Shown: in pieces, positions 9,281 through 28,085 of the stretch | How positions within the stretch are numbered: the first letter of the stretch is position 1 | Layout of the letters: every line of letters begins with the position of its first letter | Origin: a bacterium | GTDB taxonomy: Bacteria; Omnitrophota; Gorgyraeia; Gygaellales; Profunditerraquicolaceae | Assembly (NCBI GenBank): GCA_021813045.1 | Contig: JAKAMF010000003.1 | Location: 1-32,476, forward strand | Direction: 5' to 3' | DNA length: 32,476 nt | Translations under genes and position numbers: made by a program | The notes under the pieces: generated by a model | The model's input: only the letters and a program-made list of their open reading frames with translations | Told to the model about the DNA's origin: nothing | Databases searched by the model: none

Positions 9281-10309
9281 ATGCCAGAATTAAGAAAAGA
9301 TCCGATTGTCGGAAGATGGGTAATTATTTCCACTGAACGGGCTAAGCGCCCGGATCAGTTCGGAGCGAATTTTGACCCCGGGCCGCAGGAATTGACGCCT
9401 TGTCCGTTTTGCGAGGGAAACGAATCGCAAACCCCCAAAGAAATCTTTAGCTTAAGGCCAAAACAAGCTCCGGCTAACTCTCCCGGCTGGGAATTAAGGG
9501 TTGTGCCGAGCATCGGCCCGTTTTTACGCATTGAAGGGAGCCTGGATCGCCGCGGCAAAGGCGTTTACGACTTAACCAACGGCATTGGTGCGCACGAAGT
9601 AGTAATCGAAACCAGCCAGCATATCAGTAATATGGCTGACCTGCCGCAAGAACAAATCTTAAAAGTAATTAACTGCTATATTGACCGAATCAATGACCTG
9701 GAAAGAGATAAACGGTTCAAATATGTTTTAGTTTTTAAAAATTACGGCTGGACTGCCGGCGGCAGCATGATCAAACATGCCAAATCACAGCTAATCGCCA
9801 CACCGGTAAATCCCAAGCGGGTTAAAGAAGAGCTTGCCGGAGCTAAACAATATTTTGATTTTCATGAAAGGTGCATTTTTTGCGACTTAATCAAGCAAGA
9901 GCTCGATTCGCCGGAAAGGGTTGTTTTGGATATTGACGGCTTTATCGCGGTTGTCCCTTTTGCCCCGCGTTTTCCTTTTGAAACCTGGATCCTGCCGAAA
10001 AAACACTCCTGCGATTTTGCCGCTTTAGAAAACCAGAACCGCGGCAATCTGGCGGAAATTTTAAGAAGGGTGCTCTTGAAATTAAAAACCGGGCTAAACG
10101 ACCCTCCGTATAATTATGTGATCCATTCCGCGCCTTTCCGACGGGCAAAAGCCGGATATTGGAAAAGCATCGACCAGGATTATCACTGGCACATTGAAAT
10201 TATCCCCCGGCTTACCCGCGTGGCCGGATTCGAATGGGGGACCGGTTTTTACATCTGTCCGTTGTCTCCGGAGGACGCGGCAAAATTTTTAAGAGAGGTT
10301 AACGCCTGA
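9281..10309 (+). CDS. GalT-like nucleotidyltransferase paralog 1 (HxH motif altered to HAK)
   Basis: MPELRKDP...WVII...R..RP, CPFC, GAHEVVIE, CIFC, YHWHIEI, AGFEWGTG. Active-site segment reads GGSMIKHAKSQ. Confidence 0.85.
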   Translation: MPELRKDPIVGRWVIISTERAKRPDQFGANFDPGPQELTPCPFCEGNESQTPKEIFSLRPKQAPANSPGWELRVVPSIGPFLRIEGSLDRRGKGVYDLTNGIGAHEVVIETSQHISNMADLPQEQILKVINCYIDRINDLERDKRFKYVLVFKNYGWTAGGSMIKHAKSQLIATPVNPKRVKEELAGAKQYFDFHERCIFCDLIKQELDSPERVVLDIDGFIAVVPFAPRFPFETWILPKKHSCDFAALENQNRGNLAEILRRVLLKLKTGLNDPPYNYVIHSAPFRRAKAGYWKSIDQDYHWHIEIIPRLTRVAGFEWGTGFYICPLSPEDAAKFLREVNA

Positions 10310-11307
10310 TGTCTGATTTAAGAAGAGATCCGATTGTCGGCAGATGGATTATTGTTGATACTGACCATCCCAAAGCTCCGACAGATTACAAAGCAGTAGA
10401 AACGCATTCACCGCTTGGCGGGCATTGCCCTTTTTGCTACGGCAATGAAATGGATACGCCGTTTGAAATTGACTCGATCCGCGACCCGCAAACGCAAAGC
10501 AATACCCCCGGTTGGCAGGTACGCGTGGTTTCCAATAAATATCCGGCCTTAAGGATCGAAGGGAACCTAGACAGAAAAGGCATCGGTATCTATGATATGT
10601 CTAATGGTATCGGCGCACATGAAGTATTAGTCGAGACTCCTTATCACCATAAGGACATTACTGAACTTTTAGACGAAGAAGCGGAAAAAATTATTCAAAT
10701 GTATTTAAACCGCTCACAGGATCTGGTCCGCGACAAGCGTTTTAAATATGTGATGATTTTTAAGAATTACGGCCCGGCTGCCGGCGCTTCGGTTGAACAT
10801 CCGCACACGCAAATTATCGCCTTGCCCATGGTGCCGAAAAACGTGCTGGATGAGATTCATGGAGCGGAAAGGTATTTTGAATTTCACGAAAGATGCATCT
10901 TCTGCGATATTATCCGCCAGGAAAAAGAAGAGAAAGAAAGGATAGTCCTGGAAAATGACGATTTTCTGGCATTCTGCCCGTTCATCTCGCGATTTCCTTT
11001 TGAAATCTGGATTGCGCCGAAAGAACACCATAGCCACTTTTCTCATTTACCGAAACAGGCGATCGGAAGCCTGGCGATGATATTAAAACAAACAATCAGC
11101 GCGACAAAAAAACTCTTTGGAAATATCTCATATAATTATATAATACATACTTCTCCGGAAAACAGCGAAACCGGAAACGCGGGATATCATTGGCATATCG
11201 AATTTATACCGAAGTTAATGCGCGTGGCTGGATTTGAGTGGGGTTCGGGATTTTATCTGGTGCCCACCCCGCCGGAACTGGCCGCGAAATACCTAAAAAC
11301 ACAATAA
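10309..11307 (+). CDS. galT: Galactose-1-phosphate uridylyltransferase / GalT-like nucleotidyltransferase paralog 2 (intact HPH)
   Basis: [25 protein letters not shown] (HPH at 10798-10806), [17 protein letters not shown] stop/start overlap. Confidence 0.85.
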
Positions 11308-12444: not shown

Positions 12445-14619
12445 ATGCTTAACTTAATCCTGATTATCGGCTTAAGCGGAATTGTCGCGCAAACCCTGCT
12501 TTTAAGGGAACTGCTGATTAATTTCAGCGGAAATGAACTCGCCTTAGGGATTATTTTTTCCTGCTGGGTGTTAGCTGAAGCAACCGGAGCCTTGACCGTA
12601 GGAAGAATTATCAGCCGGATAAAAAATAAATACGACCTGATTACCTGGCTGCAAATCTGCTTTACGGTTGCCTTTATCTTGTCGATTTTTTCTTGCCGCT
12701 TTTTCCGGCCGGTATTTGGAATTGCCAGCGGAGAAACCACCGGAATACTGACTACCGGTTTAGCTTCGCTGCTTTATATTTTTCTGCCGGCATTCTGCCA
12801 CGGCGCGCTTTTTTCGGTGATCTGTTCGTTAATTAATATTGGGCGAGCATATTCTCTGGAAACACTCGGCACACTAGCCGGAGGGATAGCCCTGACCTAT
12901 ATATTCCTGCCTAACCTTAATTCTTTTCAAACCGCGCTATTGGTTTGTTTAGCTAATCTTTTGCTTTGCCTGTATTTCTTCCGGCGGATCAGCCTTAAAA
13001 CTAAAATTACCTGCGGATTAGCTGTTCTTTTATTGCTAATGGGAACGCTTAAGTCAAACCAAGCGCAGCTTTATTCAATTAATCAGCAATTTAAGCCAAC
13101 CCGGGTTTTAGATTACCGTAATTCCCCTTACGGCAATATCTGCGTGGGCGAAAAAAACAAACAATATACTTTCTTTTATAACGGCGCTCCGCTAATCACA
13201 GTACCCAAACCAGATATCTTTTTCGTAGAAGAATTCGGTAATTTACCTTTATTATTCCATCCTAACCCGCAAAAAATACTAATTATTCAAGCGGGAGCAG
13301 GAGGGCTGATCAATGAAATCTTAAAATACCCGGTAGAAAAAATTGATTACCTGGAGCTTGACCCATTGCTAATCCAAGAAATCAAAAAATTCCCCACAGA
13401 GTTAACGAGCAAAGAATTAACCAGCCCGCAGGTAAAGATCTTTTACGCTGACCATCGGGATTTTTTCCGAAGAACGAAAGAAAAATACGATTGTATCTTT
13501 ATCGGTATTGCTAAACCATCAAATTTAACCGCCAACCGCCTTTTTAGCCAAGAATTTTTCGCCATAGCCAGACAACACCTTGCCTCCGAAGGAATTTTAA
13601 CTTTTAACTTACCCGGCTCATTAACTTATCTTAGCCAAGAGCTAAAAGACCTTAATTCCTGCGTACTGAATGCCTGCCAAAAAGAGTTCCCTTATTTAAA
13701 AGTAATCCCCGGAGACAATAATTTATTCCTGGCTTCCGGTTCAAATGAAATACTGAAGATCTCCAGTCAAGCCATAACCGAAAGAATAAAAGAAAGGGGC
13801 ATCAATACTAATATATTTACCTCCGGATACCTAAATTACCGCCTAAGCAATCAATGGCTGGATTGGTTTAAACAAAATATGCGAAACGCTACCAGAAAAA
13901 TCAATCAAGACAGCCGGCCGATTGCGGTTTTAGAAACATTAGCCCTTTGGAATAAACAATACAACCCTGGATCCGCCGGCCTGCTACGCGCCTTAACTAA
14001 AATCAGCATGAAATGGATAATCATCCTGATTGCCGGAATTACCTGCCTGATTATTTTACTTACCTTGCGCCGGAAAAACAATAAAGAGACTATCACCATG
14101 CCGTACGCTATTTTTACTACCGGTTTTTTTGGCATGTTAATTACCCTGATCTTAAATTTTAATTTTCAACTTGCCTTTGGCTACCTCTATCAGCAAATCG
14201 GCTTATTACTAAGCTTATTCATGGCCGGCTCAAGCATAGGCAGCCTGATCACTGTCCGGCTCAAAAAAGAAAATAAACCAATGCTAAGAATTTTTCTTTT
14301 AGCCGAAGCTTCAATTATAGCTATAACCTTAACTATTTCAGGATTAGGCCACAGAATAAATTACCCGGCTTTCTTAATTTTGTTCTTTACAGCCGGCCTG
14401 CCACTGGGATTTGAATTTGCCTTAGCCGGAAAAATTTCCTGGCGCGGACGGGAGAATATCGGCGCGGTTGCCGGACGGTTATACTTTTTTGATCTGCTTG
14501 GCGGCTTGCTGGCCGGAGTTTTCTCCGGTATACTGCTTTTACCGGCCCTCGGCATAACCAACTCCTGCCTGATTATTGCTGTTTTAAAAATCAGCAGCAT
14601 AATTATCTTTTTAATTTGA
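12445..14619 (+). CDS. Membrane protein with central spermidine-synthase-like (class I SAM-binding) domain
   Basis: Several N-terminal TM segments (SGIVAQTLLLREL, YSLETLGTLAGG), SPYGNI, KILIIQAGAGG, YLELDP, RLFSQEFF, then a second C-terminal TM block (YFFDLLGG). Confidence 0.8.
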   Translation: MLNLILIIGLSGIVAQTLLLRELLINFSGNELALGIIFSCWVLAEATGALTVGRIISRIKNKYDLITWLQICFTVAFILSIFSCRFFRPVFGIASGETTGILTTGLASLLYIFLPAFCHGALFSVICSLINIGRAYSLETLGTLAGGIALTYIFLPNLNSFQTALLVCLANLLLCLYFFRRISLKTKITCGLAVLLLLMGTLKSNQAQLYSINQQFKPTRVLDYRNSPYGNICVGEKNKQYTFFYNGAPLITVPKPDIFFVEEFGNLPLLFHPNPQKILIIQAGAGGLINEILKYPVEKIDYLELDPLLIQEIKKFPTELTSKELTSPQVKIFYADHRDFFRRTKEKYDCIFIGIAKPSNLTANRLFSQEFFAIARQHLASEGILTFNLPGSLTYLSQELKDLNSCVLNACQKEFPYLKVIPGDNNLFLASGSNEILKISSQAITERIKERGINTNIFTSGYLNYRLSNQWLDWFKQNMRNATRKINQDSRPIAVLETLALWNKQYNPGSAGLLRALTKISMKWIIILIAGITCLIILLTLRRKNNKETITMPYAIFTTGFFGMLITLILNFNFQLAFGYLYQQIGLLLSLFMAGSSIGSLITVRLKKENKPMLRIFLLAEASIIAITLTISGLGHRINYPAFLILFFTAGLPLGFEFALAGKISWRGRENIGAVAGRLYFFDLLGGLLAGVFSGILLLPALGITNSCLIIAVLKISSIIIFLI

Positions 14620-24400: not shown

Positions 24401-24730
24401 ATGATAAAAAACAGAGTATTTCCCGTAGCATTGGATGAAAAAGAATCTTTCCGCCAGTTTGCCGAACGGCTTACCGGCTGGGAAGTCAAAGACAGCCACA
24501 TCAGAAAAATAAAAGTCCGCTCCTTCAGTGACCGTATTAAACGCCAAATCAGTTCCGATATCTGCGTAGGCCAGGAATTAGATAATAATCTTTCTAACAT
24601 ACCCGGCGAGCCGGTTTTAGCGATTTTTGAATCCAAAGAATACCTGGTAATTACTCCGGATAAAAGCAACCTTAAGGCAACGGTCTATCTTTTTGACCAG
24701 TCCGAAGTATTAGGCATAGAAAAAGAATAA
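24401..24730 (+). CDS. Hypothetical protein (109 aa)
   Basis: GGGAGG SD, protein-like composition, fills the intergenic space. No family recognised. Confidence 0.75.
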   Translation: MIKNRVFPVALDEKESFRQFAERLTGWEVKDSHIRKIKVRSFSDRIKRQISSDICVGQELDNNLSNIPGEPVLAIFESKEYLVITPDKSNLKATVYLFDQSEVLGIEKE

Positions 24731-24830: not shown

Positions 24831-27800
24831 ATGTATTTTAAAAAATTAGAGCTTATCGGCTTCAAGTCGTTCTGCAATAAAACCACTCTGCATTTCGAGC
24901 CGGGGATTACCGCGATAGTCGGCCCGAATGGCTGCGGCAAAAGCAACATTTTTGATTCTATCCGCTGGGTTCTCGGCGAACAATCCGTAAAATCACTGCG
25001 CGGCTCAAGCATGGAAGATGTAATCTTCAACGGTACGGACACCAAAGAGCCGGTAGGCATGGCCGAAGTAAGCTTAACTTTCGATAATACCAATAAATTT
25101 TTCCCCGTAGAAAGCGAAGAAGTAACTATTTCCCGCCGTATTTTCCGCTCCGGAGAAAGTGAATACCTGCTGAACAAAACCCAGGTCCGCTTAAAAGACA
25201 TTATGGATATCCTGCTCGGCACGGGTATCGGCGCAGAGAGTTATTCGATCGTCCCGCAGGGAAAAATCGACATGATCCTCAGTTCGCGGCCGGAAGACCG
25301 GCGGCTGATTTTTGACGAAGCCAGCGGTATCACTAAATATAAGGCGCAAAAAAGAGAAGCCTTGCGCCGCCTGGAAGAAACCGAACAAAATTTACTCCGG
25401 GTCAATGATATTATTACCGAAGTAAAGCGGCAGATCGGCTCACTGGAAAGACAGGCTAATAAAGCCCGCAAATATAAAGACGCTTTTGAAGAATTAAAAA
25501 ATAAAGAGTTAGTTTTAGGCGTTTTGCAAAAAAATGAAATCAATAAATTAAAGATCCAGATCGCAGAAAACATCAGCGCGCTCACCCAGGAAGAAAACCG
25601 GTTAAGCCAAATAATCAAAGAACAGGAAGACGGTATTTCCGGCTCGCAAACAGAATTAAAAAACCTGGAAGAACAAATTTTAAGCTCTCGCACGCAATTA
25701 ATTACCCTGGAAAACTTAATTACCCGCAGCAAAGAGCGCATTGAATTAAACAAAGAAAGAATGAACGAACTGGACACCAACAAAACATCTTTGGCTGCAC
25801 AAGCAGAACAATCAAAAAGCCGGCTTTTAACTGACGGAGAAAAAATAAACCTGCTGCGCCTGGAATATGCTAATCTTAAAAATAATATTGAATCCAAATC
25901 CGCGATTTTTAAAGAAAAGGAATTACTCTTAAATAACATTGCCGAAGCAATAAAATTATCCCTGGAAAACATTGCTTCCGGAAAAAAGTCAATTCTGGAT
26001 ATTCTCACTAAAATCACCCACACCAAGAACGAATTAACCGATTGCAATTCTAAACAGCAAATCCAGCAGGCCCGTAAAAAACGCTTGGAAATCGAACGGG
26101 CAAAAATAAACGAGGAGAAGGCGTCAGCCGAAGCATCGCTTGCCGCCACCAAACAGGAACTAGACCAGATTAACGCGGGATACGAAACTATCAGTTCTAA
26201 AACATCCTCGCTAAAAAATGCGCTGGAAGAAGAAAAAAACTCCTTAAAGAACCTTGGGCAAATCATCGAAGAACTGGCAAAACAAAAACTTACCTTAGAA
26301 TCGCAAAAACAATTTATCCAGGAACTGCGCACTAAGTATGATGATATCAGCGAAACAATGAACGCAGTAATCTATCTGGATAAGCTGCCTAATGAAAAAA
26401 TTAGCGGCCTGGTAGTAAGGATTACTGACAGCGCTAATCAACCGAACCATGAAAATAACTACCAGCTCAAGGTTTCCGGCGAAGCTAAGCCGTTTGACTT
26501 AGATACACAAAAAATCGCGGAAAGAATCCTGAGCCTGGAAGAAAAAATCAACGCTTTAAAAAATAACCAAACCGATAAGCAAACCACAATCTCCAACCAG
26601 GAAAACCAGCTAAACGCCCTGCATGATGAGCTGCGCGCTCAAGAAATAATCCTGGCCAATAAAAAAGCCTCTTATCAAGTTAACCTCGACCAGTTCAACC
26701 GGCTAAACGAAGAATATACTTTAGCTAACTTGGAATTAGAAGAGGTTGAAACAGATTTAATTGCCATAGGCCAGAAGAATACCGCTTTACAAGCCCAGCT
26801 TAACGAATTGGATAACCAGCAAAAAACTAAAGAAAGCCTGATCACCAATGAACAAAATAATATTTCTATCAACAATAGCCAAAAAGAAGGGGCGCTGGTT
26901 ATTATTACCCAGATCAAAACCGAACTTGAGGCGTTGACTAAACGGATTAATTCCGATGATATAAACTTAAAGGCGCTGGAAGAAAGATATAACCAGGACA
27001 AAGAAAGCGTCTCGAATATTGAAACGCAAATTAACGACTGCGCGGCCAAACATAAAATATTAGAGGCGGAAAACGAAGAATTGGGCAATAAAATCGTCCA
27101 GACCAACCTGGATATCGTTGACCAAAGCACTTCGCTTAAAGAAACTGAAGCTAAATTTAAAGGCATCTCTTCCGGCATTAGCGAGATTATCAAACGGATA
27201 GACACGGATAAACAATCCCTGGACAGCCTAAAAAACAGAACCTACCAGCTGCAAATGCAGGATAAAGACGCGCAATATAAGTACCTGGCCCTGAGCGAGC
27301 GCCTGGCGCAAGCCTATAAGATCGACCTGGAACAACTAAACGAGACATCCCTGCTAGACGTTGACCTGCAGCAGATTAACCTTGAGATACTCTCTGAAGA
27401 AATTAACCGTATGAAAGACAGGGTGAATTCTTACGGCTCGGTAAACCTGGTGGCAATTGAAGAATACGACGAATTAAAGAAACGCTATGACTTTCTTACC
27501 CAACAACAAACCGACCTGGTCACAGCCAAAGAATCCCTGCGCGAAGCGATCAATAAAATCAACCGCACCACTAAACAAATGTTTTTAGAAACGTTTGAAA
27601 AGGTGCGCGTGGAATTCCGCAATTATTTCAAACTCTTATTTAACGGCGGAGACGCGCAGGTCTACCTGATCGATGAACAGGACCCGCTGGAATCCGGCAT
27701 AGAAATTATCTGCCGGCCTCCGGGTAAAAAACTGCAGAATGTCCTGCTTTTATCGGGCGGTGAAAAATCAATGTCAGCTATCGCATTGATCTTCGCGATC

Positions 27801-28085
27801 TTCAAGATTAAGCCGGCGCCATTCTGTGTCTTAGATGAAATTGACGCTGCGCTGGATGAAGCGAATGTAGACAGATTCGGCCGGGCACTACAGGACTTTT
27901 CCAAACTCTCGCAATTTATCGTGATTACCCACAATAAAAAAACCATAGCCAATGCCAATATCATGTACGGCATCACTATGGAAGAATCCGGTGTTTCAAA
28001 AATTGTCTCCGTGAAATTTGCCCAGGATAAACCCGCCGCCAAAGAATCAAATCCCGAAACTCAAGCAGTCCCCGAACCGGTTTAA
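24831..28085 (+). CDS. smc: Chromosome segregation protein SMC with non-canonical short hinge
   Basis: GFKSF, GPNGCGKSN, LRG..M.DVIF.G, Q-loop PQG.I, FDEASGI, LSGGEK, PAPFCVLDEIDAALD, ITHN, long coiled coils. Confidence 0.92.
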   Translation: MYFKKLELIGFKSFCNKTTLHFEPGITAIVGPNGCGKSNIFDSIRWVLGEQSVKSLRGSSMEDVIFNGTDTKEPVGMAEVSLTFDNTNKFFPVESEEVTISRRIFRSGESEYLLNKTQVRLKDIMDILLGTGIGAESYSIVPQGKIDMILSSRPEDRRLIFDEASGITKYKAQKREALRRLEETEQNLLRVNDIITEVKRQIGSLERQANKARKYKDAFEELKNKELVLGVLQKNEINKLKIQIAENISALTQEENRLSQIIKEQEDGISGSQTELKNLEEQILSSRTQLITLENLITRSKERIELNKERMNELDTNKTSLAAQAEQSKSRLLTDGEKINLLRLEYANLKNNIESKSAIFKEKELLLNNIAEAIKLSLENIASGKKSILDILTKITHTKNELTDCNSKQQIQQARKKRLEIERAKINEEKASAEASLAATKQELDQINAGYETISSKTSSLKNALEEEKNSLKNLGQIIEELAKQKLTLESQKQFIQELRTKYDDISETMNAVIYLDKLPNEKISGLVVRITDSANQPNHENNYQLKVSGEAKPFDLDTQKIAERILSLEEKINALKNNQTDKQTTISNQENQLNALHDELRAQEIILANKKASYQVNLDQFNRLNEEYTLANLELEEVETDLIAIGQKNTALQAQLNELDNQQKTKESLITNEQNNISINNSQKEGALVIITQIKTELEALTKRINSDDINLKALEERYNQDKESVSNIETQINDCAAKHKILEAENEELGNKIVQTNLDIVDQSTSLKETEAKFKGISSGISEIIKRIDTDKQSLDSLKNRTYQLQMQDKDAQYKYLALSERLAQAYKIDLEQLNETSLLDVDLQQINLEILSEEINRMKDRVNSYGSVNLVAIEEYDELKKRYDFLTQQQTDLVTAKESLREAINKINRTTKQMFLETFEKVRVEFRNYFKLLFNGGDAQVYLIDEQDPLESGIEIICRPPGKKLQNVLLLSGGEKSMSAIALIFAIFKIKPAPFCVLDEIDAALDEANVDRFGRALQDFSKLSQFIVITHNKKTIANANIMYGITMEESGVSKIVSVKFAQDKPAAKESNPETQAVPEPV

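Follow-up and report, generated by a model that had tools for sequence, protein, structure and literature searches.

An Smc protein in which the canonical hinge is replaced by an element of about 55 residues, here called the mini-hinge, is encoded on contig JAKAMF010000003.1 of a bacterium of the phylum Omnitrophota, family Profunditerraquicolaceae (GenBank assembly GCA_021813045.1). The window, meaning the whole stretch of DNA analyzed, comprises positions 1 to 32,476 of this contig. In SMC proteins, the hinge is treated as a defining domain and is credited with dimerization, DNA binding and, in some models, the role of a gate for DNA or obstacles. We consider it probable that the protein described here is a genuine Smc with a collapsed, dimerizing mini-hinge, and this is the best explanation overall. 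The gene, the parts of its product and the elements of the mini-hinge are as follows (all on the forward strand).

24831..28085, forward: smc, 1084 codons plus stop (open reading frame list and translation, TIGR02168, Pfam SMC_N)
24831..25310, forward: N-terminal half of the ATPase head, residues 1–160, with Walker A GPNGCGKS at 31 and the Q-loop at 141 (motif scan)
25323..26342, forward: N-terminal coiled-coil arm, residues ~165–504, start approximate (modeled helix 421–504 and alignment to hinged Smcs)
26337..26504, forward: mini-hinge, residues 503–558, the only non-helical part between the arms (AlphaFold2, translation, conservation)
26361..26390, forward: hydrophobic stretch NAVIYLDKLP, residues 511–520, extended and without assigned secondary structure in both models (DSSP)
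26406..26435, forward: beta-strand 1 of the hairpin, GLVVRITDSA, residues 526–535 (both AlphaFold2 models)
26436..26468, forward: variable loop at the hairpin tip, residues 536–546, an insertion/deletion hot spot (alignments)
26469..26495, forward: beta-strand 2 of the hairpin, KVSGEAKPF, residues 547–555, followed by DLD and, from 559, the C-arm helix (both models)
26505..27530, forward: C-terminal coiled-coil arm, residues ~559–900, end approximate (modeled helix 559–639 and alignment to hinged Smcs)
27531..28082, forward: C-terminal half of the ATPase head, with LSGGE at 974, Walker B/D-loop at 997–1009 and the H-loop ITH at 1032 (motif scan)

Identity of the protein and its partners

In an NCBIfam scan, TIGR02168 (SMC_prok_B) matches the whole protein at 873.5 bits, against a cut-off of 567.35. 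The match falls into two stretches, the best of which places residues 2–515 on positions 1–515 of the 1181 in the profile. With Pfam, SMC_N spans residues 3–1056 (223.6 bits), and otherwise only generic AAA/P-loop families are matched. All of the Smc-type head motifs claimed in the original prediction, which had been made from the sequence of this DNA, were located by motif scan at the positions listed above (Walker A, Q-loop, LSGGE, Walker B/D-loop and the ITH H-loop); the D-loop DEIDAALD starts at residue 1002. The arms match those of hinged Smcs of the same class without large gaps (1057 shared head and arm columns, <15% gaps), which bears out the claim that they are full length. With boundaries as drawn in this analysis, arm length is ~340 residues, and this fits the natural Smc arm-length mode of 341 residues reported in the accessible portion of PMC5344682, where the B. 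subtilis arm measures 344.

The gene is the only Smc-like one found in its own genome, a metagenome bin of 1.18 Mb in 102 contigs that is 89% complete. It had been noted that scpA and scpB are not in the window; this is correct, but a genome-wide search finds both, with ScpA (PF02616) at 138.8 bits on contig C36 and ScpB (PF04079) at 188.4 bits on contig C62. A set of 41 related genomes of the same family or order, with this one (G000) counted in, was used for comparison; these are kin, and counts across them are not independent events. ScpA is found in 40/41 and ScpB in 38/41 of them, and both are present in 20/20 genomes of at least 90% completeness. Because ScpA and ScpB are retained, the protein is placed as an Smc-ScpAB ortholog rather than a separate condensin type, and we regard it as almost certain that it is the single-copy Smc of this complex. 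The earlier proposal of a distinct condensin subtype was overstated, given a single-copy Smc that is nested in the tree of its class and retains both partners.

In NCBI records, Smc orthologs (P0007, P0034, P0035 and others) are labeled 'AAA family ATPase' or 'hypothetical protein', and JGI names the proteins of the relatives 'chromosome segregation protein'. The lost hinge may be the reason why the NCBI orthologs escape the Smc name. This has a practical side for annotation, in that the NCBI name for mini-hinge Smcs is only 'AAA family ATPase'.

Absence of the canonical hinge

The SMC_hinge family (PF06470) was not found in the protein by Pfam scan, even at E≤10. It was likewise not found in its own genome (0/1) or in any of the related genomes (0/41), and the same search, as a control, was positive in 10/14 known genomes. 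Motif scans of all 1084 residues detected neither the glycine-rich hinge motif GX6GX3GG nor a CxxC motif (cysteines are at 15, 35, 405, 737, 961 and 999). No MukB/Mks family was present among the Pfam matches at E≤10 or in the best 25 of 27 NCBIfam families at E≤1. Within the reach of these searches, the original prediction was right that a canonical hinge is missing between the arms, that there is no Rad50 hook and that the protein matches no MukB or MksB family.

The protein had also been described as about 100 residues shorter than is typical, and within the class this is the case: mini-hinge frames of 1063–1099 aa compare with 1173–1240 aa for hinged Smcs. When the two forms are aligned, the arms match as far as the edges of the hinge, and it is the hinge that falls into the gap. 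The stretch that corresponds to residues 495–572 measures 196–212 aa in hinged Smcs of the class versus 70–95 aa in mini-hinge forms.

Structure and conservation of the mini-hinge

Residues 420–639 were modeled with AlphaFold2 (model m99fd8dbeda5c) from a 32-row alignment, which represents 32 of 36 loci after L043, L021, L010 and L012 were dropped. At a predicted local distance difference test score (pLDDT) of 91.1, the model contains two arm helices (421–504 and 559–639) packed as a hairpin, and the only non-helical part is 505–558. This part begins with an extended segment (505–525, pLDDT ~80), followed by strands at 526–535 and 547–555 that are joined by a loop. A second model, of the 78 residues 495–572 (m7ccd26b3298c), shows the same elements at pLDDT 79.7. 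The strands occupy positions 107–116 and 128–136 in the first model and 32–41 and 53–61 in the second. The models, together with the exact translation of 26337–26504, agree with the earlier description of residues 503–558 as the sole non-coil stretch between the arms. A short beta-rich element in place of the hinge is also upheld, with the hairpin present in both models and the segment conserved in 40/40 aligned orthologs. Its description as three-stranded is not, since both monomer models show a two-stranded hairpin plus the extended hydrophobic segment.

Conservation was assessed as the column majority fraction over 40 aligned orthologs. The segment is kept in all 40, and it is therefore not a chance feature. 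The most conserved apex positions are Y503 (40/40), F495, L499 and K553 (39/40 each) and G526 (34/40). K or R is found at 530 in 35/40, E551 and A552 are each kept in 32/40, and P520 and P554 in 29/40 each. Within the hydrophobic stretch, column majorities are 0.70 for A512, 0.68 for L516, 0.65 for D517 and 0.72 for P520. The mean majority fraction is 0.50 for residues 503–535 and 0.62 for 546–558, but 0.26 for the tip loop (536–545); for comparison, it is 0.45–0.49 in the arms and 0.81 (1–160) and 0.83 (900–1060) in the heads. In alignments of same-family orthologs, the length of the tip loop ranges from a few residues up to ~25 extra. By eye, strand 2 consists of alternating hydrophobic and charged residues, and 512–516 are hydrophobic throughout. 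The alignments indicate that the mini-hinge is under purifying selection across the clade. Over residues 496–572 it is net acidic (10 K+R versus 14 D+E), which makes a DNA-binding role unlikely and has no bearing on dimerization.

Verification of the assembly

A short middle could result from an assembly error or from a decaying gene, and the fragmented state of the metagenome bin gives some reason to consider this. The stretch is present in four public runs of one study, one of which may be the source of this DNA; no RNA run containing it was listed. Contigs of run X3 break within the segment, between 26445 and 26478. However, contigs from two other samples bridge it without joints or indels: one of run X2 covers 25981–27000 with one substitution, and one of run X4 covers 26084–26674 with zero differences. 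In addition, the reading frame is intact, the segment shows purifying selection, most full-length orthologs in the related genomes are of similar size (1059–1125 aa), and none of these genomes has PF06470. With two spanning contigs and an ortholog in 40/41 relatives, misassembly is excluded. An artifact is thus exceedingly improbable, and for practical purposes this explanation is refuted.

Distribution and origin

The related genomes, named Candidatus Omnitrophota or Omnitrophica in their source records, contain an Smc ortholog in 40 of 41 cases. Full-length matches span query residues 1–1084 at 43–60% identity, mostly in frames within the size range given above, and several other matches are clipped at contig ends. 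Residues 470–600 match 175 proteins at E≤1e-3, and the 120 of these that were listed all lack PF06470. Among 121 genomes sampled from the class, 82 have a PF06470 hinge (frames of ~1170–1300 aa) and 39 do not. Fifteen of the 39 were examined, and 13 of them have the mini-hinge, in the frames of 1063–1099 aa mentioned above (one clipped by a contig end). The others are G048, with a 988-aa Smc that has neither hinge nor mini-hinge, and G074 (89% complete), with no Smc match. Of 201 genomes drawn from across the phylum, 40 are matched by a mini-hinge profile (A2), and each of these carries the label of the same family, order or class. When 1.84 billion cluster representatives were searched with the profile, 50 reached E≤1e-3; the majority are proteins of Smc size, matched at ~495–575, or fragments of such proteins, and a few of the weakest are matches of short profile parts elsewhere. 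Because so few representatives, mostly Smc-sized, are found among so many, the mini-hinge appears to be confined to this one Smc lineage.

A phylogeny was built with FastTree (LG+gamma, Shimodaira–Hasegawa-like support, midpoint root only) on the 1057 head and arm columns, from 40 Smcs of PF06470-negative genomes and 23 Smcs found via PF06470. L021 and L025 (inteins), L010 and L012 (internal stop) and L049 (truncated) were dropped. In this midpoint-rooted tree, all mini-hinge Smcs (40/40) group together at support 1.0 to the exclusion of every hinged sequence, and this clade is nested among hinged ~1200-aa Smcs of its class. The topology therefore fits a single hinge collapse, in an ancestor shared by a large group within one class.

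The 988-aa Smc of G048 (L043, G048:C10:35065-39363) has a different history. This genome belongs to another family of the same class and is 98% complete in 10 contigs. In its Smc, the part matching query residues 434–569 is swapped for ~24 residues, the arms are ~30 residues shorter, and there is no PF06470 and no mini-hinge match. In the tree, the protein joins the hinged Smcs found in its family (support 1.0). We interpret it from these comparisons as another hinge loss within this class, independent of the first and more drastic, with an apex that we read as a short loop.

Two further observations concern Omnitrophota Smc genes. Genome G076 combines a mini-hinge Smc, in a 1137-aa frame on a contig of 270 kb, with a fragment of a PF06470 hinge (47 bits) whose contig is 2.8 kb long. 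Its loci are:

G076:C23 (L073): contig of 2812 bases
G076:C61 (L074)

The simplest explanation for the small contig is that it strayed into this bin; alternatively, it may represent a second SMC-like gene. Other Smc genes have frames of 1600–1800 aa that include intein and LAGLIDADG domains (PF14890, PF14528), and these occur in hinged and mini-hinge forms alike (L021 at G017:C57, L025 at G065:C67, P0006, P0027, P0043, P0091 and P0099). An insertion in the head, close to the P-loop, is suggested by the match to query residues 1–45, which sits ~1.6 kb upstream of the remainder.

Relation to the canonical hinge and to known folds

Profile alignments show a faint likeness to the canonical hinge. 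With the arm flanks included, hhalign places the entry helix and first strand onto the start of the hinge with a probability of 37%. Without the flanks, two short colinear matches are obtained (P 0.03–0.05 each, probability ~1%), in which the first strand corresponds to the first strand of the hinge and the GEAKP-type strand to a GRA.F..L-type strand. In the ESM Atlas, residues 498–565 retrieve clusters of SMC_hinge fragments at 0.90, with 97/256 shared features, a result that the tool rates as a lead. We hypothesize that the mini-hinge is what is left of the hinge's N-terminal half after loss of the helices in between and of the entire C-terminal half. It may more specifically represent the stripped-down first and third strands of that half of the ancestral hinge.

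Structure searches returned no relative. Foldseek of the 221-residue model against the PDB gave no match at E≤1e-3, and above this threshold the hits are coiled-coil hairpins only (V-ATPase stalk subunits, an Smc arm fragment and, at rank 50, prefoldin). VIA-align of the 78-residue model, which is small and extended, found nothing at Z≥2 among 48,161 chains. The mini-hinge profile searched against PDB sequences reached a best E-value of 0.41, with no SMC chain. Neither structure search matched a hinge fold. The claim that the module is new is uncertain: the entry helix and two short motifs are colinear, though weakly, with the N-terminal half of the canonical hinge.

Proposed function of the mini-hinge

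We propose that a doughnut-shaped hinge of ~170 residues collapsed in the ancestor of the clade to a mini-hinge of 55–95 residues. This would be built from the end of the N-arm helix, the extended hydrophobic segment NAVIYLDKLP, a beta-hairpin with a tip of variable length, and the start of the C-arm helix. Because the heads and the arms at full length are kept, as are ScpA (the kleisin) and ScpB (the kite protein), the machine is still Smc-ScpAB. The mini-hinge would act as a minimal module for constitutive closure and homodimerization, in which two copies pair via the exposed hydrophobic strand or segment and join the arms at the apex. What would have been lost is the lumen of a canonical hinge, together with its surfaces for DNA contact.

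In B. subtilis, according to the accessible portion of PMC5344682, abolished hinge dimerization inactivates Smc, yet a Rad50 zinc hook in place of the hinge supports normal growth on rich medium. Since an Smc that requires apex dimerization can tolerate such a hook, the segment and hairpin are best explained as a minimal closure and dimerization module. By analogy with these experiments, dimerization of the mini-hinge is somewhat favored. A more detailed picture is put forward only tentatively: the apex could be of a new kind, in which the hairpin and the NAVIYL-type segment of two copies pair across a two-fold axis into a small beta-sheet between the chains, and the ring is closed without a lumen or DNA-binding surface. 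If this is true, all hinge functions beyond joining two arms would be dispensable in nature for the Smc-ScpAB of a whole clade. A two-copy complex prediction for residues 420–639 (alignment A1), made without controls, scored 0.29 against a mark of 0.42, a result that weighs neither way on binding.

Several points weigh against a dimerizing mini-hinge. In the model, the hydrophobic segment is placed at pLDDT ~80 without a partner, so it may be buried within one chain; the independent loss in G048 suggests that an apex domain may be dispensable in these bacteria; and nothing in the PDB resembles the mini-hinge by structure or sequence in the Foldseek, VIA-align and profile searches. Its net acidity runs contrary to DNA binding and is silent on dimerization. 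The main rival explanation is that the mini-hinge merely caps a folded-back arm and does not dimerize, with the chains held by ScpA-bridged heads and arm zipping; the complex would then be a rod or clamp with an open apex. As would suit a cap, neither monomer model needed a partner to be confident, and it is the loop-only Smc of G048, branching inside hinged Smcs and lacking any apex domain, that keeps this explanation alive. Published SMCs of oceanic Actinobacteria are likewise described, in the accessible text of PMC12153180, without any hinge or CxxC. For a mere cap, however, there would be no need to keep one Tyr invariant, one Lys nearly so and a hydrophobic stretch conserved over 40 genera-level lineages, and B. 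subtilis Smc is inactive once apex dimerization is lost (PMC5344682, accessible portion). We therefore judge a cap to be unlikely, though to a lesser degree than the explanation considered next.

The mini-hinge could instead be a docking site that binds not itself but another molecule, either a further protein or DNA, by which the apex is closed or regulated. The conserved charged residues K530, E551 and K553 on a small exposed hairpin, together with the tip loop of variable length, would be suited to such a role, and smc is immediately preceded, here and in four related loci, by a conserved 109-aa open reading frame. Yet this frame occurs in only 6/41 related genomes and once on a different contig from smc, no other conserved neighbor was seen, and direct DNA binding is made unlikely by the net-acidic segment. 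Docking is accordingly considered improbable. A dimerizing mini-hinge remains our preferred explanation.

Comparison with known SMC systems

Compared with canonical Smc (TIGR02168, with B. subtilis as the reference), the Omnitrophota protein has the same head motifs, the arm length of hinged Smcs of its class, ScpA and ScpB, and the standing of a single-copy ortholog in a housekeeping neighborhood. It differs in lacking PF06470, the glycine-rich dimer motif and ~120 residues, and in having a hairpin element of 55–95 residues instead. The closest engineered design is B. subtilis Smc(Zh), which carries the Pyrococcus Rad50 zinc hook (PMC5344682, accessible portion). Both combine normal heads and arms with a very small apex module, and Smc(Zh) shows that this design is workable. 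In contrast to Smc(Zh), the Omnitrophota form is natural, has no CxxC and is not metal-based as far as can be told from its sequence, and its dimerization is inferred. Rad50/SbcC, RecN and MukB/MksB share ABC-type heads on an antiparallel coiled coil with a compact apex. Rad50 models score only 34–60 bits on the Omnitrophota protein, against cut-offs of 700–1087, and the protein lacks CxxC; RecN (TIGR00634) scores 48.5 bits versus 407.85, and SbcC 20.4 versus 478.5.

Natural hinge-less SMCs have already been published for another phylum. The accessible text of PMC12153180 (Environ Microbiome 2025) describes a monophyletic 'hinge-less' SMC cluster without CxxC from oceanic Actinobacteria. These proteins resemble the Omnitrophota form in their heads, antiparallel coiled coil, lack of hinge and CxxC, and membership of a monophyletic environmental group. 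By their description, they differ in phylum and in that no conserved beta element at the apex is mentioned in that text. Because the phyla are different, the two hinge losses are independent events. Together with the second independent loss in the same class (G048), this suggests that hinge reduction is recurrent in small-genome bacteria. The word Omnitrophota has 0 occurrences in the accessible text of PMC12153180, and we found no published account of an Omnitrophota Smc hinge in the literature.

A large natural clade that keeps heads, full-length arms, kleisin and kite but has its hinge cut to ~55 conserved residues constitutes a natural test of the need for a hinge. As a natural counterpart to the engineered zinc-hook Smc, it makes testable which hinge functions are required for loading and loop extrusion. 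The mini-hinge fragment is small enough for quick biophysics and is swappable into B. subtilis Smc.

Genomic context of smc

The window is an ordinary housekeeping region that includes glycosyltransferases, PriA, Fmt, GAPDH, PGK, TIM, SecG and an ETF pair, followed by smc and next by a convergent GGDEF gene. The upstream frame mentioned above adjoins smc on its 5' side:

24401-24730, forward: open reading frame of 109 aa

No Pfam family matches it even at E≤10. It is conserved at 51–68% identity in the six related genomes that have it (G000 included). Judged by this comparison, it is a real small gene of unassigned function that does not track the mini-hinge. As a candidate partner of the mini-hinge it was ruled out by its presence in so few relatives.

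Elsewhere in the window, a 724-aa protein (12445–14619, forward) has a spermidine synthase domain only at residues 262–417, between long flanks without a Pfam family at E≤1e-5. Two adjacent paralogs of GalT/HIT type (9281–10309 and 10309–11307, both forward) resemble galactose-1-phosphate uridylyltransferase and match DUF4931/DUF4921.

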